NCBI GenBank assembly: GCA_963664225.1 | Contig: OY760937.1 | Coordinates: forward strand, 704,001 to 768,000 | Direction: 5' to 3' | Source: Verrucomicrobiia bacterium | Lineage (GTDB): Bacteria; Verrucomicrobiota; Verrucomicrobiia; Limisphaerales; UBA1319 | DNA: 64,000 nucleotides | In this document: in pieces, positions 11,356 to 25,574 of the stretch | Numbering within the stretch: position 1 is the stretch's first letter | Layout: the number at the start of each line of letters is the position of its first letter | Notes under the pieces: generated by a model | Told to the model about the DNA's origin: nothing | The model's input: only the letters and a program-made list of their open reading frames with translations | Database searches by the model: none | Made by a program: the position numbers and the translations under genes

Positions 11356-13302
11356 TCACTTGTCGCCTCCCAGCAGAACCAGCGCCGCCATCGCCGCTAT
11401 TCCGACCAGCAGGTAAAGCAGGTAAGCCTGCACCCGGCCGTGTTGAAAACGGCGCGCCGCCAGCGCCAGGTTCATGATCGCCCCGGCCGCAGGCGCGAAC
11501 ACGTATTCGAGCACTGTCTCCGGTGTGTGCTGAGTGGAACGAGCGTGCGCGGGGAAAACTTCCGTCGGGCGATGTTCGTGGCGAACTGGGCGGAGAATCC
11601 AGGCGAACCATTCGGTGATGATGGCGGCAAATGAGCCCGCGGTGTATTGCATGCGCGCCGTCGGCGCGGCGTAACCACAGTCCCACGTCAAAACGCGTTG
11701 AAACCCACTGCCTCGGGCCTTGCGCCACAGCCACACTGCCGCCACCACTGCGATCGCCGCCAGGGTGATATGCGCCATGCTGAGCGCCGCGAGAGGGACG
11801 GGGGAGGGAGTTCCGGCCCAAACGGGCTGCCAGACTTCAACAGCCCGCGAGACAGCGGGCCAGAATACAACCGGCGCCAGACCAATTGCCACACAGCCTG
11901 CGGCGAGCAACAGCATCGATCCGCGCATTGCCGGGCCACACTCGTGCGCATGAACCGCCGCGTCAGATCGAGGCGCGCCCAGGAAAACCACACCGCACAC
12001 CTTCACGAAACACGCCAGCGCCAGCGCGCCGGTTACGCCAAGCAGTATCGCCGCGGGTATCGCGGCCCACGCCGTAGGGCCATGCGCCAATGTGCTGTCG
12101 AACAGACCGAGATAAACGAGCCATTCGCTGACAAATCCATTGAGCGGTGGCAGTCCGGAAATAGCCGCGGCGCCGAGCGCGAAAAGCGATGCCGTCCATG
12201 GCATTGTCCGCCAGAGTCCGCCAAGGCGGCTCATTTCGCGGGTGCCGGTCGCGTGCAATACCGAGCCTGCGGCGAAAAACAGAAGGGATTTGAAAAGCCC
12301 GTGATTCCACACATGGAGAAGGCCTCCCGCCAGCGCAAGCCGTCCCCATGTTGGATTACCCTGGCTGGTGGCCACCATTGCGAATCCAAGACCAATGAGA
12401 ATGATTCCGATGTTCTCAACGCTGTGATAAGCGAGCAGCCGCTTGAGGTCGTGCTGGCCGAGGGCGAAGGCGACGCCGAGCACGGCGCCAACGACGCCAA
12501 GGGTTGCCACCACCCACCCGGCGGAGGGCGGAACAGGCAGCCAACCGCTGAACCGCACCAGCCCGTAAATGCCGATCTTGAGCGTTACGCCGGACAGGAT
12601 GGCCGACACGTGACTTGGCGCGTTGGCATGGGCTGAGGGCAGCCAGATGTGCAGTGGAAACATGCCGGCCTTCAGTCCGAATCCAACCAGCGCAAGCCAG
12701 AACAAGGGGGCGAACTCTGTATGGTTGCGCATCGGGCCGAGATCCCAGTTTCCGGTGTGGGCCGCAAGACTGGCGAAGAAGGCGAAAAGGCAAAGTGCGG
12801 CCACATGCGACGCGCCAAGGTACAGCCAACCCGCCGCCCGAACCTTGCTTGATCGTCGGTCGAGAGTGACCAAAAAATACGCCGCAACCGTGAATAGCTC
12901 CCATGCGATGAGAAAATGTAATCCGTTGGAGGAAAGTAGCACCAGGCCAAGACAGAGGAGCAGCACGCTCCACCACACCCGGCCGGGGCGCGAAGAACGC
13001 GGATGCGCCGCGTCACTCCAATATTCGCGGGCATAAACGGCGCCCGCACCGCCGATCAAGGCAAGCAGCGCAAGAAATAATGCGCTTAAAGCATCGAGTC
13101 GCAGATGGATGGTTTCGCCGCCAAGGTGCAGGACGCTGCGCCATTCCCAGGCTGCATCCGAGGCCAATGCCGTGACCGCCGCACCCAACGCGCCCGTAGT
13201 TCCAGCGAGCACGCACGCCAGCCACAGTCTGGGAGCGCGCGCTCCAGCGAGGATGCTCACAAGCATCCCTGCGCCAGAAATCGTCAGCAGAGTATGAATC
13301 AT
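11356..13302 (-). CDS. hyfB: HyfB-like proton-translocating antiporter subunit
   Basis: FLIAWE, GFGLKAGMFPLHIWLPSAHANAPSHVSA, DLKRLLAYHSVENIGII, GLPPLNGFVSEW, TWDCGY...RMQYT. Confidence 0.9.
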   Translation of the reverse strand: MIHTLLTISGAGMLVSILAGARAPRLWLACVLAGTTGALGAAVTALASDAAWEWRSVLHLGGETIHLRLDALSALFLALLALIGGAGAVYAREYWSDAAHPRSSRPGRVWWSVLLLCLGLVLLSSNGLHFLIAWELFTVAAYFLVTLDRRSSKVRAAGWLYLGASHVAALCLFAFFASLAAHTGNWDLGPMRNHTEFAPLFWLALVGFGLKAGMFPLHIWLPSAHANAPSHVSAILSGVTLKIGIYGLVRFSGWLPVPPSAGWVVATLGVVGAVLGVAFALGQHDLKRLLAYHSVENIGIILIGLGFAMVATSQGNPTWGRLALAGGLLHVWNHGLFKSLLFFAAGSVLHATGTREMSRLGGLWRTMPWTASLFALGAAAISGLPPLNGFVSEWLVYLGLFDSTLAHGPTAWAAIPAAILLGVTGALALACFVKVCGVVFLGAPRSDAAVHAHECGPAMRGSMLLLAAGCVAIGLAPVVFWPAVSRAVEVWQPVWAGTPSPVPLAALSMAHITLAAIAVVAAVWLWRKARGSGFQRVLTWDCGYAAPTARMQYTAGSFAAIITEWFAWILRPVRHEHRPTEVFPAHARSTQHTPETVLEYVFAPAAGAIMNLALAARRFQHGRVQAYLLYLLVGIAAMAALVLLGGDK

Positions 13303-13653
13303 GGTCTATGACCGTTGGCAGCCTGCCAGAATTGACTGCACGAGACCATAGCAAAAGCCCTGTCAGAGGGAAATGTCAACACCGCGCCATTCCTACAAGT
13401 GGATTAACACCCATTCAAAGGGCCCATGGAAGGCGACCGTTGGGGAAAAAGAGTCATCCAATAAAACCACCGAGATCGCGAATTGAAGACTAAAAAAACG
13501 GCCTGTCTCCTGTTCAAATGGCGGACGCCAAACCACCTTTTGAATTAAACCAGCAAAAACATGAGCTGGATTCAGACGGTTTTCGACGGGGCAACAAGAA
13601 AACCCAAAGAAAGGTTTCCGTTGGCAGCCACAGAAATTCGAAGCCGCCTGGTC

Positions 13654-14319
13654 TCAGTGGCGCAGTTTTCGATACGAGGCGAAACCTAACAGAACCAGTC
13701 CAGTTGCCAAAGTGCAGGTCAGCGGTTCCGGCACGCCGGTGATTTCCACCGACCAACCATTTAAAGTCGTTGTGCCGCCCGATTCGAGACTGGCTATGAA
13801 TAACGTCCAGTTTCCGTTGGCGTCTGTAGAGTTGAAAGAGGCCAGAGTGGCGTTTCGCGGGCTCGTGCCGAGAACCAGGTCGGGATCCACGTTTCGCCCG
13901 TCCGTTTGCCAATTGCCGGTCAGGGCCAGACCAGCCGAAGGGGGTTCGATTGTGTTGTAAAGATGGATGTCCCGATTAACAAGCGAGTCATCAAACGTAA
14001 TATTCAGGCCATGATCATCGTAACCGGCGAGGTTTGAGGCGGTTCGCCCTGGACGATTCAGAAGGATGGAAATGTCATTGTCATGGCTTAAATAGGCATA
14101 CAGACCGCCATTGCTATCCGAAGAAACATCGAAAGTGACCCGCACCGAATCGATCGACGTAATGGCTGAGCTTGCATCAAAAGTCAGAGCGACGCCGGAG
14201 GCGTTGCCGTCTGCAATCGATAAATTCAGTCCGGAAAAAGTGTATGTCTCGGTTACGGCTGCGGTCAAGGGCAGGGAACCCACTCCCAAAAGCAGCAATA
14301 GCAGCGATGTTTTTTTCAT
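13654..14319 (-). CDS. PEP-CTERM-anchored secreted protein, proprotein-convertase P-domain-like
   Basis: Signal MKKTSLLLLLLG; C-terminal VPEP + hydrophobic helix + RKLRH; ...ANGNWTLFI...TLNGWSVEI resembles a P-domain beta-sandwich. Confidence 0.8.
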   Translation of the reverse strand: MKKTSLLLLLLGVGSLPLTAAVTETYTFSGLNLSIADGNASGVALTFDASSAITSIDSVRVTFDVSSDSNGGLYAYLSHDNDISILLNRPGRTASNLAGYDDHGLNITFDDSLVNRDIHLYNTIEPPSAGLALTGNWQTDGRNVDPDLVLGTSPRNATLASFNSTDANGNWTLFIASLESGGTTTLNGWSVEITGVPEPLTCTLATGLVLLGFASYRKLRH

Positions 14320-14372
14320 GATGTGCATCTTAGTTCAGCGGGTCGATTTGCTTTGATTGGATGGTCGCAAAA

Positions 14373-17300
14373 TCAGGGATAAACGGTCCGGTAAAACCGC
14401 AATGGCGATCCTGAGTTATCGTCGTAAATAATCGTCCCGGAGGGGCCGGCGATGGAAGTGCCCAGGGTTTGCCAGTCGATGGGGTGAATCAGGCTCGTCG
14501 TGTATTGAATTGTGTATGAGCGTCCAGGGATGCCGCCGAATGTTATGCGATAAACGCCCGATCCCAGGTTTTGGATGCTGCCAATTTGATTTGAACCGGT
14601 GGAATCATCGGTTTTGATGTTGACGGTGACTGTTCCTTCGGCAGTCCCGCCGTGTCCATCGCTGATGGTGTAAGTGAAGGTATCACTACTGGTGAATCCG
14701 GCAGCGGGGACATAATGAACCCAGGTATCCGCCAGGTAAATTGACGCTCCATTCGCGCTCGTCGGGAAAACAGCGGTGATGGTCAAAGCGTCGCTGTCAG
14801 GATCGGTATCGTTGGCCAGCAAGGCGGTAGTGGCGACTTTGACACCCTGGGTGGCGAAGCGTTGAATCGCATCGGCGACCGCTGTCGGCGCATGATTTAC
14901 GGAAGTGGTCACAACCGTTGTGGCACTGTTGACAACCGGAGTGAAAACCCCATCCGTCACATTGATGGTGAAGGTGGTGGTTTCCGTGGAGCCACGCGTG
15001 ACACGATTTGAAGTTGGGGCAAAAACCAGGAGGCGGATGGCGGTGGTGGCATCGGCAGCGGTGCCATTAAATGTATAAGCACCCGGTCCAGCCAATGTGA
15101 AACCCGAGCCTGTCAACGAGGCAGGGGTGAACGCACCTTTCGCGGCGTTGTCCAGGGTTATGGTTGTGTCCAGAGTTTGCGCGGGCACATCGCTATTTGC
15201 AATCGTCACCCCGACGAATGGTGAGAGAGTGGCGTTATCATTCACCGCCTGTCCAGACAGAGTTCCGGCTATTGTTGGTGGCAAATTCACAGTTGCAGTG
15301 GCGCTCGGTCCGGCGGCCGGAGCCGTATTTCCCGCCAGATCAATGGCGGTTCCGGCAGCGATGGAGATACCCAGAGGACCATGGCCTGTAATATTGGAGA
15401 TGCTGACGGTGCGCGTGAGTCCGCTCCCGGAGACGGTGATCGTCCCACCGGCGGTGCCCGGGCTGTTCAAAGTGATGTCTCCGACGGCCAGCGTGCTCAC
15501 ATCGAAGTTTGCATCAGCATAAGTCACCGTAAAATCCACTGAACCGCCGGTTGTAACCGTCGGCGAAGGCGCGCTGATGACGATGGTGGGGGCCACGCCG
15601 TCCACGAGGATACCGCTGGTGCCGGCCATGCCATTTAAAGTGAGATTTGCGTTGATCGCCGACGAATCCCGCAGTGTGGCGCCGTTGAGCACGAGCGCTC
15701 CGGCCAGTGCGATTCCGTCGTTATCGCCATTTCCGGCTGCGACCACATATCGAAAGGTTAAGGCGGTTGAACCGCTGCCGGAGAGGTATGCGGCCTGCAC
15801 CGTTCCTCCTGTGGAGAGCGTGACTGGAAGGTAAGGGGTTGCGCCAGCGACCACGATTGCCTCGTTGAAAGTGACGGTAAAATCCAGCGCCTGACCGACC
15901 CCATAAAGTGCGTCAGGTGGAACGTCAACGGAATTGACGGTCGGCACAACTGAAATATTTGCAGTTTTGGATTGCGCATCGACAATGGCCACGGCACTAG
16001 CGCTTCCGGGTGCGGTGGCGGTAAACGTGGCGGTGGCGGTTCCAGAAGACTGAATCGTAGTTTGCGCAGAGGACAGGGTGCCATGCACGGCGCTTCCAAA
16101 AGTTATGGGAACACCGACCAAGGCAGCAAGGTTGGCCGGACTGATGGTGTTGGCGCCGGAATCAGTCAGAAAGCTGGCGGTCAGTGTGGTGGTTCCTCCC
16201 ACGCCGTCGGCAATGGTGGCTGGACTGGCCGAGTGGGTCATTTGCAGCCAAAGGGTGGCCGTGGCGTTCACCATCTGGTTGGCTGCGGGACCGGTGTTGA
16301 TCCCCCACCAATTATCATTGGCGGTCAAGGTGCTACTGGTTCCACCGCGTAAAGTCAGGCCGTTGGCCGCAGTGGCTGCGGTGTTTCCAAGGAAACGACA
16401 ATAACTGACTGTGACATTGTGGCCGCTGCCGTCGGCAGATCCGATGGCTCCACCAGCGCCAGTCGGGCTTGTGGCCTGGTTGTTTTGGAATGTGGACAAG
16501 GCGATCGTCAATGTGCCGCTTTGGTTATAAATAGCTCCACCTCTGGTATTTAAGCCAGTAATCTGATTTCCAATAAAACTGCAGCCACTGATCGAGTAGG
16601 TGGTTCCCAAGCCTGTGGTTTCAATCGCGCCACCATTTCCGCTCGTGGAAATGTTATTGGTGAATTGCGAACTGGACAAGGTCAGGATGCCAGTCCCTCC
16701 GCTGGTGCTGGCGTCGAAAGCAATTGCGCCTCCGCCACCAGAAGACCCATTACCATTAAATGTGCAGTTGCTTACCGTGAGGTTGCCTCCTGCGTTCGCA
16801 ATCGCACCCCCGATTGGGGAACCGAACCCGGAGGCGAAGTTGTCCGTGAAGAGACATCCTGTGACAATAGTCTGGTTCAAGCCGGATCCGCTGATCATGG
16901 CGCCACCGCCAATACCTGTGGTTTCACGTCCGCCTCTCATGGTGACATTCTTGACTGTGAAGAGGAAACTTGCATCGAGGTTGGGATTCACCTCCAGCAC
17001 GCGATCATTTGGCCTGGTCTGCTGGATGATTGTGGCAGCCGCAGATATGCCTTCAATAGTGGTACCGCTGCGGGTGATGTCCAGATCGCCCACGGCCGGG
17101 TCGGCCGGATAGTTTTCGCCCGTTCCGTCGATTGATAATTGATAAGTGCCTGCAGGAATAAGAATCCGGTGGGGAGCGCCGGTGGGGTCGTTGTTTGCGG
17201 CGATGATCGCTTCGCGCAAGCTGATGCCGTCCGGGCCTGGGCTGCCGGTTAACGCGCTGATGCTCGTGGTGTTGCCGTTGATTGCATCCGCGGTCGTGGT

Positions 17301-17378
17301 CACGGTGATGTCTGTCGCATATCCGCTCTGAGCTAAACAGAGGACCAGCATCGACGAGGCAATAAACAGTTTTTTCAT
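14373..17378 (-). CDS. Large secreted/surface protein (CSLREA-like N-terminus, beta-helix repeats, Ig/cadherin-like domains, C-terminal RFYR domain)
   Basis: Signal MKKLFIASSMLVLCLAQSGYA; ITVTTTAD...ISLREAIIAAN; GGAI/FxxN repeats; NHAPTAVAD...LLANDTDPDSD...DTFTYTISDGHGG; ends PLRFYRTVYP. Start may instead be 17387. Confidence 0.85.
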   Translation of the reverse strand: MKKLFIASSMLVLCLAQSGYATDITVTTTADAINGNTTSISALTGSPGPDGISLREAIIAANNDPTGAPHRILIPAGTYQLSIDGTGENYPADPAVGDLDITRSGTTIEGISAAATIIQQTRPNDRVLEVNPNLDASFLFTVKNVTMRGGRETTGIGGGAMISGSGLNQTIVTGCLFTDNFASGFGSPIGGAIANAGGNLTVSNCTFNGNGSSGGGGAIAFDASTSGGTGILTLSSSQFTNNISTSGNGGAIETTGLGTTYSISGCSFIGNQITGLNTRGGAIYNQSGTLTIALSTFQNNQATSPTGAGGAIGSADGSGHNVTVSYCRFLGNTAATAANGLTLRGGTSSTLTANDNWWGINTGPAANQMVNATATLWLQMTHSASPATIADGVGGTTTLTASFLTDSGANTISPANLAALVGVPITFGSAVHGTLSSAQTTIQSSGTATATFTATAPGSASAVAIVDAQSKTANISVVPTVNSVDVPPDALYGVGQALDFTVTFNEAIVVAGATPYLPVTLSTGGTVQAAYLSGSGSTALTFRYVVAAGNGDNDGIALAGALVLNGATLRDSSAINANLTLNGMAGTSGILVDGVAPTIVISAPSPTVTTGGSVDFTVTYADANFDVSTLAVGDITLNSPGTAGGTITVSGSGLTRTVSISNITGHGPLGISIAAGTAIDLAGNTAPAAGPSATATVNLPPTIAGTLSGQAVNDNATLSPFVGVTIANSDVPAQTLDTTITLDNAAKGAFTPASLTGSGFTLAGPGAYTFNGTAADATTAIRLLVFAPTSNRVTRGSTETTTFTINVTDGVFTPVVNSATTVVTTSVNHAPTAVADAIQRFATQGVKVATTALLANDTDPDSDALTITAVFPTSANGASIYLADTWVHYVPAAGFTSSDTFTYTISDGHGGTAEGTVTVNIKTDDSTGSNQIGSIQNLGSGVYRITFGGIPGRSYTIQYTTSLIHPIDWQTLGTSIAGPSGTIIYDDNSGSPLRFYRTVYP

Positions 17379-17499
17379 GGGAATCATGTTCAAAAAGGAA
17401 CGGCGGAAGAAGCAGCAGCACGGAAAGGCGCAGCCTGGCCGATTGTCAGCCAGACCGGACAGATGATGATGGATTGTTGCAGGTGCAATGAGATCAATC

Positions 17500-18024
17500 T
17501 CAGTTTCTGCTTGGAAAAACTCCGAATAACCCGATGCAAAAATTGAGGACAAGATAGGGTGACAAATTATTGTGGGGCTGGTTGCCCCCAGCAAGCGATG
17601 GGCTGCCGGGACTGATGGTTGCGTTGCTGGTTGAAGAATAGAGATTCACCGTTTGACGCAGGGCCTTGGCTGCGGCCCACGAGTGGTTCGTTGGAGAACT
17701 TTGATTGCCTGCGCCGGTATTGGCCGAAAAATGTGTATGCATGGGCAATCCCGTGTTTGACAATGTGACATTTGTCGTACCCCCTTCTTCACCCAAGAAG
17801 CGTTGCGTTAATCCGGGACCCTGACCTTGATGGATGGGAGCGCGGCCCTGCAAATTGGGCAGGGCAAAGTTGGTGGTGCCGTTACCGCCATAGGTTGTTC
17901 CCAGAATTGAAAAAAGCGCGGTATTCTGTTGGATGGGCAGCAATTGACCGTTGCACATGGCCCAATTGCGCGGGGCGAAGTTAAACCCAAATATCCGAAT
18001 TTCACCGATGAATGACTCTGACAT
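17500..18024 (-). CDS. Phage tail-collar domain (MdpB/microcystin-dependent-like) protein, paralogue 3
   Basis: FIGEIRIFGFNFAPRNWAMCNGQLL...YGGNGTTNFALPNLQGR; HTH (HxH); ends GVFPSRN. Confidence 0.9.
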   Translation of the reverse strand: MSESFIGEIRIFGFNFAPRNWAMCNGQLLPIQQNTALFSILGTTYGGNGTTNFALPNLQGRAPIHQGQGPGLTQRFLGEEGGTTNVTLSNTGLPMHTHFSANTGAGNQSSPTNHSWAAAKALRQTVNLYSSTSNATISPGSPSLAGGNQPHNNLSPYLVLNFCIGLFGVFPSRN

Positions 18025-18042
18025 GATTTATCCTTTCAGCTT

Positions 18043-18531
18043 CTAGTTTCGGGAAGGGAATATGCCTTGTATGGCAATGCAATAGTTAACCACCAAATAT
18101 GGGGGGCGATTCTCGTGCGGCTGGCTTCCACCTGCTCCGGCCGGGTTCATGATCGCATTCGCAGTCCCCGCGTAGAGGCTTTGGCCCGAGTTGGCCCAAT
18201 AATGATTTTGCGGATTGCTTTGATCGGCACTGGTGGCATTGGCGGCAATAGGATGGGTGTGGATGGGCATTTCATTTTGCGTCAGCGCGTGCACCTCCTC
18301 ACCGCCAACCTGACCCTGCGTATAACCATTGCCCAAATGGTATGGAGCGCGTCCGCGAAGGTCAGGAAGCGCAAATGTTTGTATTCCATTTCCGCCATAG
18401 GTCGTTCCCAGAAGGGCAAAAAGGGCCTGGTTCTGAGCGATTGACATGAGTTGACCTGAGCATGTTGCCCAGCCGCGCGGGGCAAAATCAAATCCAAACA
18501 TCCGGACTTCACCTAGGAATGGGGTTGACAT
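18043..18531 (-). CDS. Phage tail-collar domain (MdpB-like) protein, paralogue 2
   Basis: FLGEVRMFGFDFAPRGWATCSGQ...FALPDLRGR; HTH; ends GIFPSRN. Confidence 0.9.
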   Translation of the reverse strand: MSTPFLGEVRMFGFDFAPRGWATCSGQLMSIAQNQALFALLGTTYGGNGIQTFALPDLRGRAPYHLGNGYTQGQVGGEEVHALTQNEMPIHTHPIAANATSADQSNPQNHYWANSGQSLYAGTANAIMNPAGAGGSQPHENRPPYLVVNYCIAIQGIFPSRN

Positions 18532-18564
18532 AATGTTCTTTCAGTTTGATGGCTGCCTGATGGA

Positions 18565-19071
18565 TTAATTGCGCGACGGGAAAACACCCTCCAAGGCGAT
18601 GATGAAGTTTAATGTCAGGAATGGCGGCATGTTTTCATGCGGCTGGTTGCCGCCTGCCACTGGGAACATGGTGGTATTGGGTGATTGATCAGTGTAAGGC
18701 CGCAAATTCGCTGAGGCCGCCCAAAAATTGTTTGTAGGATCGGTGCTGGTCCCAAGATCGGAATTGCACGCCACGGCATGACTATGCACGGGTATTTGGT
18801 TTGGGATCAAAGTTACGGTTTCTGTGCCGCTACGTTGACCAATGACATAGTTTGAAAGGCCCGGGCCTTGTCCCTGGCCCACGGGCACCCGTCCCTGCAG
18901 GTTTGGAAGGCCAAATGTGGTCATACCATCTCCGCCATATATCGTTCCAATCAAGGCAAACAGCGCGTCGTTTTGTGAAATTGCCAGCAATTGCCCACTG
19001 CAGAAGGCATAACCACGTGGCGCAAAATTGCCGGCGAACATCATTATTTCTCCTAAAAATGGCGTGGCCAT
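18565..19071 (-). CDS. Phage tail-collar domain (MdpB-like) protein, paralogue 1
   Basis: FLGEIMMFAGNFAPRGYAFCSGQ...FGLPNLQGR; HSH; ends GVFPSRN. Confidence 0.9.
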   Translation of the reverse strand: MATPFLGEIMMFAGNFAPRGYAFCSGQLLAISQNDALFALIGTIYGGDGMTTFGLPNLQGRVPVGQGQGPGLSNYVIGQRSGTETVTLIPNQIPVHSHAVACNSDLGTSTDPTNNFWAASANLRPYTDQSPNTTMFPVAGGNQPHENMPPFLTLNFIIALEGVFPSRN

Positions 19072-19109
19072 AAAATTCCTTTTCGGGTTATTGTGTCAGG
19101 TTTGAGCGA

Positions 19110-19610
19110 CTATTGGTTGCTGCTGGTGCGTTGGCCCGGACGGGCAACGACTTTCGGACTAACGACCAGCGAGGGTTGCCTGCCGGGCCGGTTGAATACG
19201 GCTTCGTAATAGCAATACTCCTGATCGTTAACAACAATGGGCACGATGAAAATTGAAAAGCAGCCGATGGCGTTATGAGTGAACAAGTAGGTGTTCTGAT
19301 CGAGAGGTTGATCCAGCGATCCGCGGAAGGTGAGGGAAAACTTTTCATTCCCAGAGTCTGCTCTGCGCAATGACGATGTTTTCGATGGCTGAGGAGTCTG
19401 CACCTTGGTCAGCATGAGATCAATCATCGCTCCCTCGCTTCCGATGACAGTGAACGTGGTGTTCACCTGTCGGATGAACATGCCCATATGGATGGAGTCA
19501 AGCGAAACCTCGGTGATAGGGGAGGCACCTCCAAAAACAGTGACTGGAGCGATTGCGACCCCCGCGGCAAGCGTGGTGCAGTTCAAAAGAAACTCTCGGC
19601 GAGTAGGCAT
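19110..19610 (-). CDS. Tat-signal conserved hypothetical protein (DUF6916-like)
   Basis: MPTRREFLLNCTTLAAGVAIA twin-arginine signal; FSLTFRG...IFIVPI...YYEAVFNR; paralogue of 20447..20791. Confidence 0.75.
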   Translation of the reverse strand: MPTRREFLLNCTTLAAGVAIAPVTVFGGASPITEVSLDSIHMGMFIRQVNTTFTVIGSEGAMIDLMLTKVQTPQPSKTSSLRRADSGNEKFSLTFRGSLDQPLDQNTYLFTHNAIGCFSIFIVPIVVNDQEYCYYEAVFNRPGRQPSLVVSPKVVARPGQRTSSNQ

Positions 19611-19798
19611 AAAATTACACAACTTCAGGCTAAATACGACTACGGACCTTGCGACTTTGATGACGTTCATCAGCAACGGCACCAACAACGCCGGAATAAA
19701 GCCAGATAAAGTGTTGGCGGTCAACTAAAAACGGCCCTCAATCGCGGCTTTTTCATAATTTTTGAATGACGCTGTTGATTGAAGAATCAAATCGGCGC

Positions 19799-19814
19799 TG
19801 GCACGGGATTTGCG
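19799..19814 (+). promoter_or_regulatory. Sigma54 (-24/-12) promoter upstream of the GNAT gene
   Basis: TGGCACGGGATTTGCG has exact GG-N10-GC spacing and matches TGGCACG-N4-TTGC; about 100 bp upstream of ATG 19911. Confidence 0.65.
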
Positions 19815-19910
19815 GAGGTTACGATCGCAGATATTGCCGGTTTTGTTCATCAGGGCGCTTGTCTTGCCCAAATCAAAAGCGTATCAGGGTGATATGTCAT
19901 ATTTCGGCCT

Positions 19911-20450
19911 ATGAACGATCAGGCGCAAAACCAGAATAACGAGCCCAACATTTCCAAGGCTGGGGTAGGTGTTGTTTCGCTTCGGCATGAAATGCCCGGG
20001 GATGAGGTCTTTCTTTTTGCAGTCTATGCTTCCACCCGCGAGGCGGAGCTTGCGATGACGGGTTGGGACGAGGCCGCGTGCACGGCTTTCCTGAACATGC
20101 AGTTTCGCGCCATGCGGGTGGGTTATCGCAGCTCTTTTCCCAATGCCGAATTTTCCATCGTCCTTTTCGATGGATGCCCCGTGGGACGACTCGTCGTGGA
20201 CCGAGGCGCAAAGGAGGTGTGTGTCGTGGATGTGGCTTTGCTGCCATCGAGTCGCAATAAGGGGCTTGGAACAAGACTCATGCGCAATCTCCTGGCCGAA
20301 GTTGAAGTGTCAGGAAAGCCCGTTCGTTTGCGTGTTCAAAAGGGCAGTCCGGCGAATCGGTTTTATCAACGGCTGGGTTTTAAACAGCTCGAAGAATTCG
20401 ATTTCGATGTAGAGATGGAATGGCTGCCCAATAAACAGGTGGAATCCTAA
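19911..20450 (+). CDS. GNAT family N-acetyltransferase
   Basis: FLFAVYASTREAEL, VVDVALLPSSRNKGLGTRLM (acetyl-CoA loop), PANRFYQRLGF. Confidence 0.92.
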   Translation: MNDQAQNQNNEPNISKAGVGVVSLRHEMPGDEVFLFAVYASTREAELAMTGWDEAACTAFLNMQFRAMRVGYRSSFPNAEFSIVLFDGCPVGRLVVDRGAKEVCVVDVALLPSSRNKGLGTRLMRNLLAEVEVSGKPVRLRVQKGSPANRFYQRLGFKQLEEFDFDVEMEWLPNKQVES

Positions 20451-20791
20451 CGGGAGGGCACGAGCCGGTTAAAGACGGCCTCATAGTAGAGTTTGCCCTG
20501 GTCCCTGCGGATCGGGACGATAAAGAGTTGAAAGGCTCCCAGTCGATCGTGTGAGAACGGGTGCAGCATCTGGGGAAGCAGTTTGTCTGCGGGACCTGCA
20601 AACAGCAGGGAAAATCTCTCGTAATCCTGATTATTAGCCGACCCTGCCGGTGGATTGGTCCTGCGATACTGAACCGCCTCCACCAGTTCCAGATCCAGTG
20701 TTCCTGCGGGATCTGACCCCACCCGGAAATTTGTATTCAAGAGCCCTTGGAATTGCTCAAATGACAATTGATCGAGCGAGATCTCATTCAT
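20447..20791 (-). CDS. Conserved hypothetical protein (DUF6916-like), no signal peptide
   Basis: ERFSLLFAGP...LFIVPI...YYEAVFNR; ATGA-coupled to the upstream dioxygenase. Confidence 0.8.
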   Translation of the reverse strand: MNEISLDQLSFEQFQGLLNTNFRVGSDPAGTLDLELVEAVQYRRTNPPAGSANNQDYERFSLLFAGPADKLLPQMLHPFSHDRLGAFQLFIVPIRRDQGKLYYEAVFNRLVPSR

Positions 20792-21564
20792 ATGCTTTTT
20801 AATTCAGGTGGAGGTTGAAAGGGGCCTCCAAAGTAAACTCTATCGACGCGCTTGGTTGCTTTCAACCAGGCCTGCCTTTGGGCTTCGGGCATTTTGAAGC
20901 AGAAACTGTAATGAAGCGGAACGGGATAGTATCCATAGACCGCCAGAATTCTCAATCCGGGCACTTTTCGGGGTGAACCGCAATGCCACGTCCGCTGGTC
21001 GATCAACAAGGCATCTTCCTTATTGCAAAATGCCGGAACATCGGGAGAAACGTTGGGCAACAAAGTCAAATCACGATGGGAGCCCGGTATGATGCGTGTG
21101 GGGCCCTTCTCCCAGGTCAGATCATCAAAGTACATGCCTACGAAGACATCTTTTGGATAATGATATTCCTTGCCAGGCATTCCATCGGGCTCGCGGTCTT
21201 TGTGCCATTTGGGAACGGAATTGGGATCCTCGGGCGACTGAATCAACCAACGATTCATGTACAATGAGGGCAGGGGATTGGCGACGGAATGGCTCAGGGC
21301 AGGGGTCAATACCTGTCGCACGCGTGGCGCCAAGGCCGGCCAGATGATCAATGGGGATTCACCTGGCAGGTCCCATTCGAGGCCATCAAAGAACAGAGCC
21401 GCTTTAACCTGTTCGGCAAAGGCGTCCACAGTCTCACGCTTAAAGACCTGCGGCAGGATGACAAAGCCGAGATCACGGAATTCGGCCATCATTCGGTCCA
21501 GTTCCGGTTTTGGATAAAGCTCTGTTACAAATTCCAGCAATGGGGTATCCATAATTAGATCCAT
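20788..21564 (-). CDS. Fe(II)/2-oxoglutarate dioxygenase, phytanoyl-CoA dioxygenase (PhyH) family
   Basis: FRDLGFVILPQV, WHKD (HxD), GPTRIIPGSHR, distal His in DQRTWHCGS followed by R. Confidence 0.85.
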   Translation of the reverse strand: MDLIMDTPLLEFVTELYPKPELDRMMAEFRDLGFVILPQVFKRETVDAFAEQVKAALFFDGLEWDLPGESPLIIWPALAPRVRQVLTPALSHSVANPLPSLYMNRWLIQSPEDPNSVPKWHKDREPDGMPGKEYHYPKDVFVGMYFDDLTWEKGPTRIIPGSHRDLTLLPNVSPDVPAFCNKEDALLIDQRTWHCGSPRKVPGLRILAVYGYYPVPLHYSFCFKMPEAQRQAWLKATKRVDRVYFGGPFQPPPELKSI

Positions 21565-22578
21565 TTAATTTTCCAAAGCAGTGTTGGTTGAATCCCGGAA
21601 AAGTTCCCGGTGCTTTGCCACCAAATCCGCATAAGGACCGGCCATCCAACGTTCCGCCAGTTGGTGTATCTCTGCGCTGGCCTCCTTCTTTTTATCCTCA
21701 CTGTCATTGCTGAATTGAAAGTGAGGATTTTTGGCATGGAACTGGGTTACGCGCTGCATTTGCTCAATTTCCCCGGCTGAATGTTGGAGTCGAAAATGGG
21801 TTGAGATGCCCGTCAAAACTGCGTCTGGTAATTGTCGGTAGTCCACCAGCAATCCCGTTTCATCGGGGAAATGTTCCAGGGCGGCCGCGCAGATTCTTCC
21901 AATCAGGGCAGCACAATACTCGTTCATTGAGAGTTGGCACAAGAGCTCCGGGTTCAATCCCATCAGGCCAGGCTCAAGGGCCATCGGCAAAAGCAATCCC
22001 CCGCGCTGACGAAACTGGGAGACGAGCACCTCGACCGGGTCACGATAAATGAATATCCACGGCACTGTTGGAAATGCCCGACGGATCAAGTCCAAACTCA
22101 GTGTGTTGATGCAGTCGAATTTGATAAAAAACTGTTTTTGTTCCGCAAGATTGGGTTGCGCCATGGCGTTCACCATGGCACGAATCCAGGTCAATTGCTC
22201 TTCGGGATCAAGGTTTGGGGTGCGATAGTTGGCCCGGATCATGACATCAATGGGGCCTGCCTCGGAAATGACGATGTTTTTCGCCAGCGCGGCATACATC
22301 TGCGATACCAGCGTCGATCCGCAACGCGACATATGGAAGATAAAGCCGTTGGGCGCCACTCCCGGATGCGAAGCGGCTCGTTCAAGCAAGGTTTCGACGG
22401 GCGTTTGGGGACGGAACAGCAGATTGTAGGGCAGACGCATGCACCGGCTAATGGTCTGATCGAAGAAGGAATCCGTGAAACGCCCGGCTCCCAGATAACA
22501 CCAGTCGATCATGGGGCGCGATTGCCGCCAATAAACCCGGATGGGAACGTAACCTTGCAATTGAGCGGAATTAATCAT
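21565..22578 (-). CDS. Sulfotransferase-family protein
   Basis: GFIFHMSRCGSTL (5'-PSB-like loop) and IFIYRDPVEVLVSQ (3'-PB-like motif). Confidence 0.8.
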   Translation of the reverse strand: MINSAQLQGYVPIRVYWRQSRPMIDWCYLGAGRFTDSFFDQTISRCMRLPYNLLFRPQTPVETLLERAASHPGVAPNGFIFHMSRCGSTLVSQMYAALAKNIVISEAGPIDVMIRANYRTPNLDPEEQLTWIRAMVNAMAQPNLAEQKQFFIKFDCINTLSLDLIRRAFPTVPWIFIYRDPVEVLVSQFRQRGGLLLPMALEPGLMGLNPELLCQLSMNEYCAALIGRICAAALEHFPDETGLLVDYRQLPDAVLTGISTHFRLQHSAGEIEQMQRVTQFHAKNPHFQFSNDSEDKKKEASAEIHQLAERWMAGPYADLVAKHRELFRDSTNTALEN

Positions 22579-22596
22579 GGGGTTGGGAAATTCCAG

Positions 22597-22806
22597 TTAA
22601 CAAACAAACCGCTCGATCCAAGCCTGCATGTTGCCGCGTATGGCGATTTCCACCTCATCGCTCGAGAATGAGAAACCCTGTTCCGCTCCAAGTTGCACGA
22701 CCGACGCAGAAAAAGCTGTCCTGTCCGATATGCCGCGCAGTTGTTCCTGCAAGGCCCGATTCTCCAGAACCCGCTCGCAGAATTGTTCAAGACTGGTTTG
22801 TGACAT
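22597..22806 (-). CDS. Nif11-like leader-domain small protein
   Basis: MSQTSLEQFCERVLENRALQEQLRG...VVQLGAEQGFSFSSDEV matches the Nif11 leader pattern; alternative start 22830. Confidence 0.7.
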   Translation of the reverse strand: MSQTSLEQFCERVLENRALQEQLRGISDRTAFSASVVQLGAEQGFSFSSDEVEIAIRGNMQAWIERFVC

Positions 22807-23036
22807 GCCTTCGGTAATTTGACTGCCCATGTTGCGAGCACACTAACGGGAGCCTCGGTTTTGTAAAGTCTTCAGCAAACCAAAGGGTGTATTTTCCCAT
22901 ATTGAATAGGGTTGCGGGTCCTCATGCGGGAAGCTTAGGATACGTCGCGCCGCGCCTGAAAACCGATTTTTTTGTGGCCGGTGGCTGCCAATTGGCCTGA
23001 TTTTCAAGCAAGTGAAGCTCAAAATATAAATTGATC

Positions 23037-25574
23037 ATGTCCGACCGTTTGCCCATTTACGATATTGAAAAGGAGATCATCACCCGGCTCCAGGAGTCGC
23101 GCCGTCTCATACTGCAGGCACCGACGGGTTCTGGAAAATCCACCCAGGTGCCGCAGATGTTGCTCGGGCATGGGTTGTTGAATGACGGACAAGTGGTGAT
23201 TTTGCAGCCTCGGCGATTGGCGGCGCGCTTGCTGGCCGCGCGTGTGGCACGTGAGCAGGGGGTGGAGTTGGGACGAGAGGTGGGATACCAGATTCGTTTT
23301 GAAAACCGCACCAGCGCGGCGACGCGGATCCGATTTGTGACCGAGGGGATTTTGTTGCGGCAGATGCTCAGGGATCCGCTGCTGGCGGGAATCCAGGTCT
23401 TGATTTTCGATGAGTTTCACGAGCGGCATTTGTATGGGGACATCACTTTGGCGCAAGCGTTGGAGCTTCAGGAAACCAGGCGGCCCGATTTGTTGATTAT
23501 CGTGATGTCGGCAACGCTGAACGCCGAGGGGTTGGAAAAGTATCTGAATCCTTGCGCCATGGTGTCCTCCGAAGGACGGATGTTTCCGGTGGAAATGGAA
23601 TACGCAATGCCACGGCCGCACACCAATCCTCCTCCGGTATGGGAGATGGCGGCGGAGGCTTTTCAGAAGCATGTGGTCTGCAATGGGGAAGGGGATGTTT
23701 TGGTGTTTATGCCAGGGGGCTATGAAATCCAGCAAACCATTGAAGCGATCCGCCAATGTCCCGAATCCAAAGGCTACATTCTGCTGCCATTGCACGGGGA
23801 GCTTCCACCGGGCGATCAGGATGCGGCCGTGGAGCGTTACGATCGTCCAAAGGTGGTGGTCTCGACCAACGTGGCTGAAACTTCGCTGACCATTGATGGT
23901 GTCCGGTTGGTGATTGACAGCGGGCTGGCGCGGATTCCCCGTTATGATCCGCACCGCGGGATCAATACGTTGCTGGTGGAGAAGATCAGCCGGGCCTCGG
24001 CAGAGCAACGGGCCGGGCGCGCGGGACGAACGGCGCCGGGGCGATGCATTCGCCTGTGGTCCCATCAGGAACATTTGGAACGCGCGGAGCGGGAATTGCC
24101 GGAGATCAAACGGTTGGATTTGTGCGAAGTGGTTCTGACCCTCAAAGCGGCGGAGGTGCGGGATTTGCGGAAGTTTCGATGGCTGGAGCCGCCTGTGGAA
24201 CAAAGCCTGGTGGATGCGGAAACCCTGCTGACGGATCTGGGCGCACTGGACCACAAGGGTGCGATTACGGAGATGGGGCGCAAAATTCTGGCGTTTCCGT
24301 TGCATCCGCGATACGCCCGGATGCTGCTGGCCGCCGAGGAATATCATTGTGTGTGGCAGGCGACGTTGATTGCCGCAATGACACAGGGCCGGGATTTGAT
24401 GATCCGCAATCCGGGGCGCGATGTTGAGGCGTTTCGCGAGGATTTGTTTGGGAATGAGGCGGCCTCCGATTTCTGGATCTGGATGCGGGCCTGGAATTTT
24501 GCATTGAAGAACAACTTTCGCATGGATGCGTGCCGCAGGGCGGGCATTCATGCGGTAACGGCACGACAGGTCGGACCGCTCCATGAGCAATTCCTGGGGA
24601 TTGCGCGCGAGGAGGGGTTGTCGGTGGAACGCGTGAAGGTGCCAGACGAGTCGATGCAGAAGTGTCTGCTGATTGGTTTTTCAGACCGTGTGGCGCGGCG
24701 GTTGGATGAAGGCACCCTGAGGTGCGAGGTGGTTCATGGGCGGCGCGGGGTGCTTGCCCGTGAGAGCGTGGCACGGCGGGGGGGATTGATTGTGGCCGCC
24801 GAGATACGAGAAGTGGAGGGGGCGGACCGGTCGTTGAACACCTTGTTATCATTGGCCACTGTGGTTGAACCTGATTGGCTGAAGGAGTTGTTTCCAGAAG
24901 ATATTGAATCCGAGTCGCGGGTATTTTACGACACCGCAACCAAACGGGTTTGCGCGGAGGAACAAATCCGTTTTCGGGGATTGACCCTGGAAGCGCGCCG
25001 TGTGGAACCGCCGCCTTCGGACGCCGCCGCGCGAATAATGGCAGAGGAAGTTTTGCAGGAGCGACTGGTGTTGAAGCATTGGGATAACAATGTGGAGCAA
25101 TGGATCCTGCGGTTGAATCTGCTTGGAAAGTGGTGCCCTGAGCTGCAATTGCCGCCCATTGGGTTGGAGGACCGGCGCAATTTAATCGAACAAATCTGCC
25201 TGGGCGCTGTTTCCTACAAGGAAATCAAGGACCGCGAGGTGCAACGTGCAGTCAAATCCTGGCTGCCGGATTACCAGCAGGAATTTGTGGAGAAACATGC
25301 GCCGGAGCGGCTGTCGCTGAGCAATGGAAAGACGCCCAAAGTGGTTTATGTGGCGGATGGGCAACCGTATATTTCCCTGCGGATTCAGGAGCTTTTTGGT
25401 GTGCAAACCACTCCGCGGATTGCGATGAACCGGGTTCCGGTGACCTTGCACATCCTTGCGCCGAGCATGCGTCCTGTGCAGATCACTCAGGATCTGGCGG
25501 GGTTCTGGAACGAGCATTACCCGAAAATCAAACAAGAGCTTCAGCGCAAATATCCGAAACACGAATGGCGGTGA
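23037..25574 (+). CDS. hrpB: ATP-dependent helicase HrpB
   Basis: APTGSGKST, QPRRLAAR, DEFHER, MSAT, TNVAETSLTIDGV, QRAGRAGR; C-terminal QITQDLAGFW...YPKHEW. Confidence 0.95.
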   Translation: MSDRLPIYDIEKEIITRLQESRRLILQAPTGSGKSTQVPQMLLGHGLLNDGQVVILQPRRLAARLLAARVAREQGVELGREVGYQIRFENRTSAATRIRFVTEGILLRQMLRDPLLAGIQVLIFDEFHERHLYGDITLAQALELQETRRPDLLIIVMSATLNAEGLEKYLNPCAMVSSEGRMFPVEMEYAMPRPHTNPPPVWEMAAEAFQKHVVCNGEGDVLVFMPGGYEIQQTIEAIRQCPESKGYILLPLHGELPPGDQDAAVERYDRPKVVVSTNVAETSLTIDGVRLVIDSGLARIPRYDPHRGINTLLVEKISRASAEQRAGRAGRTAPGRCIRLWSHQEHLERAERELPEIKRLDLCEVVLTLKAAEVRDLRKFRWLEPPVEQSLVDAETLLTDLGALDHKGAITEMGRKILAFPLHPRYARMLLAAEEYHCVWQATLIAAMTQGRDLMIRNPGRDVEAFREDLFGNEAASDFWIWMRAWNFALKNNFRMDACRRAGIHAVTARQVGPLHEQFLGIAREEGLSVERVKVPDESMQKCLLIGFSDRVARRLDEGTLRCEVVHGRRGVLARESVARRGGLIVAAEIREVEGADRSLNTLLSLATVVEPDWLKELFPEDIESESRVFYDTATKRVCAEEQIRFRGLTLEARRVEPPPSDAAARIMAEEVLQERLVLKHWDNNVEQWILRLNLLGKWCPELQLPPIGLEDRRNLIEQICLGAVSYKEIKDREVQRAVKSWLPDYQQEFVEKHAPERLSLSNGKTPKVVYVADGQPYISLRIQELFGVQTTPRIAMNRVPVTLHILAPSMRPVQITQDLAGFWNEHYPKIKQELQRKYPKHEWR

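Follow-up and report, generated by a model that had tools for sequence, protein, structure and literature searches.

The genes between positions 13654 and 22830 of a 64,000-nucleotide stretch of a Verrucomicrobiia bacterium genome (contig OY760937.1, positions 704,001 to 768,000; hereafter the window) are a local copy of a widespread cellular, non-viral group of genes, which we named the collar cassette, together with an accessory set of tailoring enzymes. The window holds a GNAT acetyltransferase gene, two DUF6916 genes, one for a product with a twin-arginine translocation (Tat) signal and one for a product without a signal, three tail-collar genes, one from each of three clades, and, downstream of them, the gene of a large Big_9/cadherin-like protein. 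Genes for a Nif11-like protein, a sulfotransferase and an Fe(II)/2-oxoglutarate (2OG) dioxygenase make up the tailoring set. New here are the evidence that this set is an integral and exchangeable accessory of the cassette, as gene neighbourhoods indicate, the reinterpretation of the Nif11-like protein, and a specific candidate modification site on the collars.

A collar cassette of cellular genomes

A scan for DUF6916 was run with one genome per species and the best 80 of 118 relatives' loci were kept. These 80 DUF6916-anchored genome contigs, eight relatives' loci and the window made up a set of 89 loci, including three duplicates, and all their open reading frames (ORFs) were clustered without prior labels. 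DUF6916 was found in 81 loci, GNAT in 76, Collar in 70 and the large protein in 55, and these counts are lower bounds because many of the contigs are short. GNAT, DUF6916 and the collars thus form a core in 70-81 of the 89 loci; a failure of the components to co-occur in other genomes would, by the first-pass annotation's own criterion, have refuted its proposal. The sulfotransferase cluster was present in 4 of the 89 loci. The commonest gene order was GNAT, DUF6916, GNAT, DUF6916, three collars, large protein. The best 80 loci come from Verrucomicrobiota, many Pyrinomonadaceae and other Acidobacteriota, Binatia, a cyanobacterium, Hydrogenedentes, Desulfobacterales, Actinobacteria, Undibacterium, Bacteroidota and others. 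Among relatives of the window's genome the distribution of DUF6916 is patchy (8 of 41 genomes, the window's own included), and no DUF6916 was found in a 93% complete genome of the same genus; in the relatives that carry it, the same genes cluster together.

The window's genome is a single 5.78-Mb contig (96% complete), in which the only Collar and DUF6916 matches are the three and the two of this locus. The collars match phage tail-fibre families in PHROGs (phrog_9116 and others, E down to 5e-26), and could on that ground be remnants or components of a prophage, of a tailocin or of a contractile injection system. We regard this origin as extremely improbable. A PHROGs search of the 49 ORFs of the window returned no phage structural family besides the collars, in line with the earlier statement that phage genes are absent; Phage_sheath_1 and Baseplate_J have no match across the whole genome, which also answers the concern, raised in the first-pass annotation, that the collars might belong to a prophage or injection system encoded elsewhere; and the same gene set recurs beside cellular neighbours in many phyla. 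None of the 11 locus proteins matched the defence models of PADLOC-DB 2.0. A 997-amino acid (aa) protein encoded at 37087-40080 on the plus strand matches Hoc-like Ig-domain phage families with its C-terminal part (phrog_3995, E 3.8e-88), but only through Ig-like repeats, and is probably another Ig-repeat surface protein and not a phage gene.

The Collar domain is recognised in all three window genes with 97.2-99.5 bits (Pfam cut-off, 24). The 132 proteins of the 44 loci with exactly three same-strand collars fell into three clades of 43, 42 and 42 members (support 0.88-0.94), and no locus was found twice in any clade. Clade A5 occupies the third gene position in 42 of its 42 members, and collars 1, 2 and 3 of the window belong to clades A3, A4 and A5, respectively. 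An ancient triplication with strict retention of one copy each is the signature expected of an obligate 1:1:1 heterotrimer, and we infer that the three collars form one. The HxH motif, which we take to be the metal-binding motif of the trimeric gp12-type fibre tip, is present in all 132 trio collars, the window's three included. The sequence of collar 2 matches a long tail fibre (8kec, E 6.4e-6) and T4 gp12 (1ocy, E 0.015) in the PDB. The window collars thus share the Collar domain and the HxH motif with these phage receptor-binding tips, but have no shaft, baseplate or virion, and would combine three different chains in place of a homotrimer. They begin directly at the Collar domain, without a signal peptide.

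The closest precedent is a virophage, DSLV2, in which three consecutive PF07484 proteins co-purify as a ~55-kDa heterotrimer and bind Synechococcus cells (PMC12724248). The window trio resembles these tripartite tail proteins in its three consecutive PF07484 genes and their position-specific clades; the DSLV2 proteins co-purified as a 1:1:1 heterotrimer that binds lipopolysaccharide-bearing cells, and fibre tips of this type bind lipopolysaccharide (PMC12724248). However, the DSLV2 proteins are part of a virion, whereas the window cassette is cellular and is accompanied by GNAT, DUF6916, tailoring enzymes and a Tat signal. In many sulfotransferase-bearing loci (L089-L092, L110, L124, L136 and others) a single longer collar of ~200-217 aa replaces the trio, which implies a homotrimeric variant of the cassette.

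Tailoring enzymes, the Nif11-like protein and the collar chain ends

The sulfotransferase was found in 5 of 401 genomes of a sample of the phylum, the window's included, and in the four others its gene lies within ~3 kb of GNAT, DUF6916 and collar genes. A metagenome scan returned at least 540 sulfotransferase relatives, from which 80 loci were kept; among the 32 loci of 8 kb or more, some of them near-duplicates, 29 hold a collar or DUF6916 gene. Nine genomes of an Acidobacteriota sample (401 genomes) carry the sulfotransferase, and of nine further loci examined from it six have collars within 10 kb. A collection of viral contigs contained two relatives, one of them in a row of hydroxylase, sulfotransferase, GNAT and three collars. 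The co-occurrence that the first-pass annotation had supposed for the sulfotransferase is therefore found in all four other genomes of the phylum sample and in most metagenome loci, and the link between sulfotransferase and cassette is strong, not absolute. In L092 (9450-11465) the sulfotransferase homologue is fused to a C-terminal methyltransferase domain within a 671-aa protein.

An AlphaFold2 model of the window sulfotransferase (pLDDT 93.7) contains an extra N-terminal hairpin domain. Its best Foldseek matches in the PDB are tyrosylprotein sulfotransferases (TPSTs), namely 9wwe (E 1.2e-6, TMq 0.45), 8w5z, 3ap3 and 5wrj, with E values from 1.2e-6 to 8e-6 and TMq of 0.43-0.45. Although TPST1/2 are thus the closest structural matches, the window enzyme differs from them in being cytoplasmic, in its hairpin domain and in its sequence, which matched no solved chain better than E 0.26. 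Their acceptor is tyrosine, whereas we propose an acceptor at the end of a chain, either a hydroxylated Asn or Ser/Thr. No synthetase for 3'-phosphoadenosine-5'-phosphosulfate (PAPS) was found in the locus; a kinase domain for adenosine-5'-phosphosulfate (APS) is encoded elsewhere in the genome. In the dioxygenase the HxD motif (WHKD) and the distal His are visible in the sequence. This PhyH-type enzyme, which follows the sulfotransferase in the window and in the close relative L093, replaces there the usual Asp/Asn beta-hydroxylase (AspH-type) enzyme, and its exact family was seen in these two loci only. That a different hydroxylase fills the same slot fits a need for hydroxylation before sulfation.

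Such an association had been predicted by Iyer et al. (2010, NAR 38:5261, PMC2938197), who described operons in which genes for beta-hydroxylase or PhyH dioxygenases, for sulfotransferases and for acetyltransferases accompany those of tail-collar or collagen-like proteins, and proposed, as a computational prediction, that the tail-collar protein is hydroxylated and then sulfated. The first-pass description of the locus as an undescribed system is thus not wholly right. Like those operons, the window has a PhyH/beta-hydroxylase-family dioxygenase beside a sulfotransferase, a tail-collar gene and an acetyltransferase (GNAT, 19911-20450); unlike several of them, it has no PAPS synthetase in the locus, the APS kinase lying elsewhere (PMC2938197). 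The DUF6916 pair, the Tat signal, the three-clade trio, the Nif11-like partner and the candidate site are not named in the part of that paper available to us (PMC2938197). In a literature search it was the sole paper pairing "tail-collar" with "sulfotransferase", and a search on COG4675/MdpB terms gave passing mentions only.

The Nif11-like protein, described in the first-pass annotation as a peptide, is better seen as a partner domain. In Nif11-type precursors of ribosomally synthesized and post-translationally modified peptides (RiPPs), a cleavage motif separates the leader from a variable core peptide. The window protein has the Nif11 domain of these precursors (TIGR03798) but neither a cleavage motif nor a core: it scored 30.9 bits with TIGR03798 (cut-off, 32.3), and, because the conserved ...W[IL]ER[WF].. 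motif is its very end and runs to the last residues, no room is left for a variable core. The domain occurs elsewhere in three forms, as a stand-alone protein of 68-104 aa, as in the window, at the C-terminus of a ~270-aa Asp/Asn beta-hydroxylase-type protein, and as an N-terminal extension of the sulfotransferase (389-463 aa in total). In 42 of the 80 metagenome loci, and likewise in another genome of the phylum sample, a homologue immediately precedes the sulfotransferase. To judge from these fusions and neighbourhoods, we read the protein not as a RiPP precursor but as a docking domain that would couple hydroxylase and sulfotransferase or recruit their substrate. A separate Nif11-type RiPP cluster, made of the Nif11, sulfotransferase and dioxygenase genes and lying beside the collars by chance, is highly improbable. 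The clear Pfam Nif11 match (E 2.9e-11) and the position of the tailoring enzymes directly downstream of the Nif11 gene would suit such a cluster; it is contradicted by the sub-threshold TIGR03798 score, the lack of a Gly-Gly site and of a variable core in the 77-aa protein, the fusions to hydroxylase or sulfotransferase in other loci, the lack of a peptidase or transporter gene in the locus, and the placement of the sulfotransferase family beside the cassette in 29 of 32 loci of at least 8 kb.

Collars from sulfotransferase-bearing and other loci were compared column by column, and the single column that stood out was the last residue. Asn is the last residue in 51 of 64 collars of sulfotransferase-bearing loci and in 22 of 96 collars of long loci without sulfotransferase, 21 of these 22 in one clade. 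The sulfotransferase-bearing loci of at least 8 kb, with duplicates removed (79 collars, 37 loci), were then divided by hydroxylase. With a hydroxylase on the contig, 53 of 60 collars end in Asn (the rest in Thr, 3; Gln, 2; Ala, 1; Ser, 1), against 6 of 19 with none on the contig (Ser, 7; Thr, 5; Gly, 1). When the loci were collapsed at 50% sulfotransferase identity, units with a majority of Asn ends were 9 of 9 with hydroxylase and 2 of 5 without (Fisher p 0.027), and at 60% identity 21 of 21 and 2 of 8, such units being still not fully independent. In two of the three clades, the collars of same-family relatives without the enzymes have Gln, Ser, Thr, Gly, Pro or Arg as their last residue. 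The short DUF6916 protein showed no sulfotransferase-linked column; in Tat-DUF6916, for which only 10 linked sequences were available, there were a few weak ones, some inside the signal peptide. In gp37 the last residues of the chain are located back in the collar domain (PMC12724248).

From this covariation the last amino acid of each collar chain is a likely decoration site, which is a new lead. The end residues fit a rule by which a terminal Ser or Thr would be sulfated directly, whereas a terminal Asn would need the Asp/Asn hydroxylase first; the terminal residue could also be a recognition determinant rather than the modified atom. The opposite chain end is conserved as well. Of the 199 collars whose start could be recognised, 179 have Ala or Ser and 16 have Gly at residue 2, and 180 have Pro at residue 4; as a crude background, 18% of the other ORFs of the same loci have Ala or Ser at residue 2. 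Ala and Ser N-termini lose the initiator Met and are typical acceptors of RimI/RimJ-type N-acetyltransferases. The only named NCBIfam match of the GNAT protein is a sub-threshold rimI.

Layout of the locus and neighbouring genes

The eleven genes listed by the first-pass annotation are all present in the order given, as judged from ORFs, Pfam and NCBIfam, and the two junctions it reported are exact: at 21564/5 the stop codon of the sulfotransferase abuts the ATG of the dioxygenase (TAA-ATG), and an ATGA overlap at 20788-91 joins the dioxygenase gene to that of the short DUF6916 protein. Operon coupling thereby links these two genes with those of the Nif11-like protein and the sulfotransferase, and the plus-strand GNAT gene separates the two minus-strand groups. 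Two starts were corrected. The large protein most likely begins at ATG 17387 (MIPMKKLF..., signal peptide) and not at the longest-ORF start at 17594, which makes it 1004 aa long without overlap with collar 3, and Tat-DUF6916 most likely begins at 19610 (MPTRREFLL).

Genes of the collar cassette and tailoring set in the window, with the matches on which each assignment is based
Gene product	Positions	Strand	Evidence
PEP-CTERM-tailed protein, 224 aa, weak P-domain-like match	13654..14328	-	C-terminal VPEP motif; sub-threshold NCBIfam, Pfam
Secreted beta-helix / Big_9-cadherin-like surface protein, 1004 aa	14373..17387	-	Pfam Big_9 E 1.6e-19, Cadherin_5, Chlam_PMP repeats
Collar 3, clade A5, 174 aa, C-terminus ...FPSRN	17500..18024	-	Pfam Collar E 3.2e-28
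Collar 2, clade A4, 162 aa, C-terminus ...FPSRN	18043..18531	-	Pfam Collar E 1e-28
Collar 1, clade of alignment A3, 168 aa, C-terminus ...FPSRN	18565..19071	-	Pfam Collar E 5.3e-28
Tat-signal DUF6916 protein, 166 aa from ATG 19610	19110..19610	-	Pfam DUF6916 E 9.6e-19
GNAT acetyltransferase, 179 aa	19911..20450	+	Pfam Acetyltransf_7/1, GNAT E 2.6e-10
Short DUF6916 protein without signal peptide, 114 aa	20447..20791	-	Pfam DUF6916 E 5.5e-26
PhyH-like Fe(II)/2OG dioxygenase, 258 aa	20788..21564	-	Pfam PhyH E 6.7e-7, 30.2 bits (cut-off 22)
PAPS-type sulfotransferase, 337 aa	21565..22578	-	Pfam Sulfotransfer_3 E 2e-7, 31.9 bits (cut-off 27)
Nif11-like protein, 77 aa	22597..22830	-	Pfam Nif11 E 2.9e-11

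A scan of 13300-23200 for promoters and terminators found no more sites than in shuffled sequences (9 against 6.8 promoter-like and 6 against 12.3 terminator-like sites). The G+C content is 0.51-0.52 at 18001-22000, compared to 0.58-0.63 on the left flank (8-14 kb), and this low value, together with the lack of DUF6916 in the same-genus genome, suggests a horizontal acquisition of the cassette.

The Big_9/cadherin-like module of the large protein was found in 9 of 15 members of its cluster that were scanned. At the C-terminus of the PEP-CTERM protein, a VPEP motif is followed by a hydrophobic stretch and a basic tail; its NCBIfam match is below the cut-off (22.7 against 50 bits), and it is conserved beside the large protein in the same-family relatives L001, L002, L004 and L006. 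In a Bryobacteraceae locus (L017, 15079-19245) the large protein carries collagen triple-helix repeats, CBM96 and Big_9. These repeats recall the link that Iyer et al. drew between the same enzyme classes and collagen-like proteins (PMC2938197).

Further genes accompany the cassette in some lineages. Upstream of it, Pyrinomonadaceae loci such as L034, L062 and L064 encode a conserved sigma-54 activator that contains FHA and GAF domains, and also a methyltransferase of 568 aa, the N-terminal half of which had been considered a diverged PhyH domain; this candidate was dropped, as BLASTP against the window dioxygenase gave E values of 1.8 or more. In some Pyrinomonadaceae loci, a prolyl-hydroxylase-like 2OG oxygenase is encoded between collars and large protein, and a gene with a phosphoribosyltransferase domain is present as well. 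An asparagine-synthase-like gene follows the collars in L074 (12169-19282; Desulfobacterales) and L090 (14610-16562; Verrucomicrobiota). In L074 this gene precedes two more sulfotransferase genes, one for a radical SAM enzyme and an HPr-kinase-like one, an arrangement that resembles a lasso-type peptide cluster.

A proposed pathway of decoration and export, and its alternatives

A twin-arginine motif is present in 62 of 128 DUF6916 proteins, the commonest pattern per locus is one Tat-signal and one short protein (38 of 78 loci), and RR..F is invariant in the 53 aligned signal-bearing homologues. TatA is encoded in the genome, and, of the DUF6916 and collar proteins of the locus, only Tat-DUF6916 carries the signal. 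The invariant signal, the signal-less collars and the presence of TatA suggest that a folded collar trimer is exported riding on Tat-DUF6916. Such "hitchhiker" export by the Tat pathway is known from the small and large subunits of hydrogenases and from DmsA/DmsB. The cassette resembles these pairs in that one partner has a strictly conserved Tat signal and its encoded neighbours are signal-less; it differs in that it has no redox cofactor and in that the binding is suggested by a weak computational score. The literature search found no paper on DUF6916 and none coupling "tail collar" with "twin-arginine".

That score comes from a complex prediction of the three collars with mature Tat-DUF6916, made with own alignments and four chains, unlike the calibration set. 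It reached 0.50 (runs 0.40, 0.52 and 0.50), compared to 0.00 for the best of three controls; the runs share at least 80% of contacts, and the pLDDT of the partner is 71 or more. In the calibration, 116 of 157 solved complexes and 2 of 215 mismatched pairs attained the mark; only 18 of the 157 attained it with a score of 0.60 or lower, as did both passing mismatches.

In our joint reading of these data, the collars form a trimer that is decorated at its chain ends, leaves the cell on Tat-DUF6916 and serves as a sugar-binding tip near the surface protein; we rate it somewhat short of an even chance. In the cytoplasm the three collars would fold together as a 1:1:1 trimer that resembles a fibre tip and has an HxH metal site. 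GNAT would acetylate their conserved Ala/Ser N-termini, the dioxygenase would hydroxylate the C-terminal Asn with which all three window collars end, and the sulfotransferase, docked through the Nif11-like protein, would sulfate the resulting Asn hydroxyl. The signal-less trimer would then exit the cytoplasm on Tat-DUF6916 and, once outside, bind sugars as a tip located close to the giant surface protein and to the PEP-CTERM protein. In its full detail, a phage-derived tip turned cellular, acetylated at the N-terminus, beta-hydroxylated at the terminal Asn and then O-sulfated there (on Ser/Thr directly) by a TPST-like enzyme through Nif11-like docking, and carried out piggy-back by Tat, the scheme is distinctly unlikely to be correct at every point. 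We know of no described O-sulfated hydroxy-asparagine at a protein C-terminus. As for the first-pass proposal of a modified, non-phage fibre-tip module, its gene linkage has stood, both in the co-occurrence of the components and in the lack of contractile-tail genes, whereas the role given to the Nif11 peptide has not, and the claim of an undescribed system holds in part only.

Several observations weigh against the decorated, Tat-exported trimer. On supported branches an independent-pairs test had 4-5 contrasts; hydroxylase and Asn changed in the same direction in 2.8-4.4 of them and in opposite directions in 0.1 (p at least 0.125); since these contrasts are too few for a strict phylogenetic test and kin share states, the covariation could partly reflect shared ancestry. 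The class without hydroxylase was defined from the available contig of each locus, and several of these contigs are short. In clade A4, Asn is also the last residue of the collar in 21 of 32 loci that lack the sulfotransferase; the enzymes are thus no prerequisite for a terminal Asn. Of four sulfotransferase loci with a single collar, two have a collar ending in Ser, which fits direct sulfation but is a reading after the fact. Acetylation of the collar N-termini by GNAT is a working guess from the conservation of those termini. The complex score is a weak pass, and it weakly suggests that the trio binds Tat-DUF6916. The modelled fold of DUF6916 offers no functional clue: the short protein is predicted by AlphaFold2 as a small six-stranded beta-barrel (pLDDT 86.3), the DUF6916 profile had no match among solved structures at E up to 10, and Foldseek found none in the PDB at E of 0.001 or lower. 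A wide VIA-align search gave MrkH (5ejl_A) as best match, with Z 7.7, rmsd 2.8 and 87 aligned positions, a range common for unrelated small barrels, followed by YcgR-N, PilZ-like, MreC and protease half-barrels. Finally, three of the nine Acidobacteriota sulfotransferase loci have no collar within 10 kb. In these three (L176, L177 and L181), the sulfotransferase (in one case with a hydroxylase) has no collar, DUF6916 or GNAT gene within 10 kb, and the enzymes may thus have other clients.

Besides the prophage and peptide-cluster explanations weighed above, the enzymes might be part of the cassette yet modify targets different from the collars. These could be DUF6916, the giant surface protein or the PEP-CTERM protein, or else a sugar or small molecule that, once sulfated, is bound by the collar trimer as a lectin. 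Enzymes of the PhyH family often have small-molecule substrates, the short DUF6916 gene shows translational coupling to the enzyme operon, and its homologues are often the immediate neighbours of the enzymes elsewhere. The lipopolysaccharide binding of such fibre tips (PMC12724248) would also suit a sugar substrate. However, it is the collar C-terminus that covaries with the enzyme set, whereas the short DUF6916 has no sulfotransferase-linked column; many sulfotransferase-bearing loci have no large protein on the contig, and the sulfotransferase model is closest to enzymes that sulfate protein tyrosines. We consider another substrate unlikely, though a serious contender.

The collar trimer might also be neither exported on DUF6916 nor an adhesin tip, and instead work in the periplasm or after release from the cell, for instance as a phage-receptor decoy or bacteriocin-like binder, with the large protein only loosely associated. 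The large protein is absent from the contig in 34 of the 89 loci, the large proteins are heterogeneous (Big_9 in 9 of the 15 scanned), and the collar/Tat-DUF6916 score is a weak pass, all of which would suit such a factor. It accords poorly with a Tat signal that is invariant on one DUF6916 paralogue, the gene of which adjoins the collars, and with the lack of any PADLOC match among the 11 proteins, and we judge it improbable.

The preferred reading, a collar trimer decorated at its ends and carried out by Tat-DUF6916, bears on stand-alone collar proteins. Such proteins, presumably those named "microcystin-dependent protein" or RhiB type, are commonly encoded by bacteria, and to our knowledge no function has been shown for them. 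The cassette is found in many phyla, and the hydroxylation and sulfation of collars have been a computational prediction for 16 years. The present analysis makes this prediction concrete by naming the C-terminal ...FPSRN with expected shifts of +16 and +80 Da, and the N-terminus with +42 Da. If true, protein sulfation and Asn hydroxylation would form a cytoplasmic tailoring route in bacteria, the Tat pathway would have a new use, and DUF6916 would have a function.

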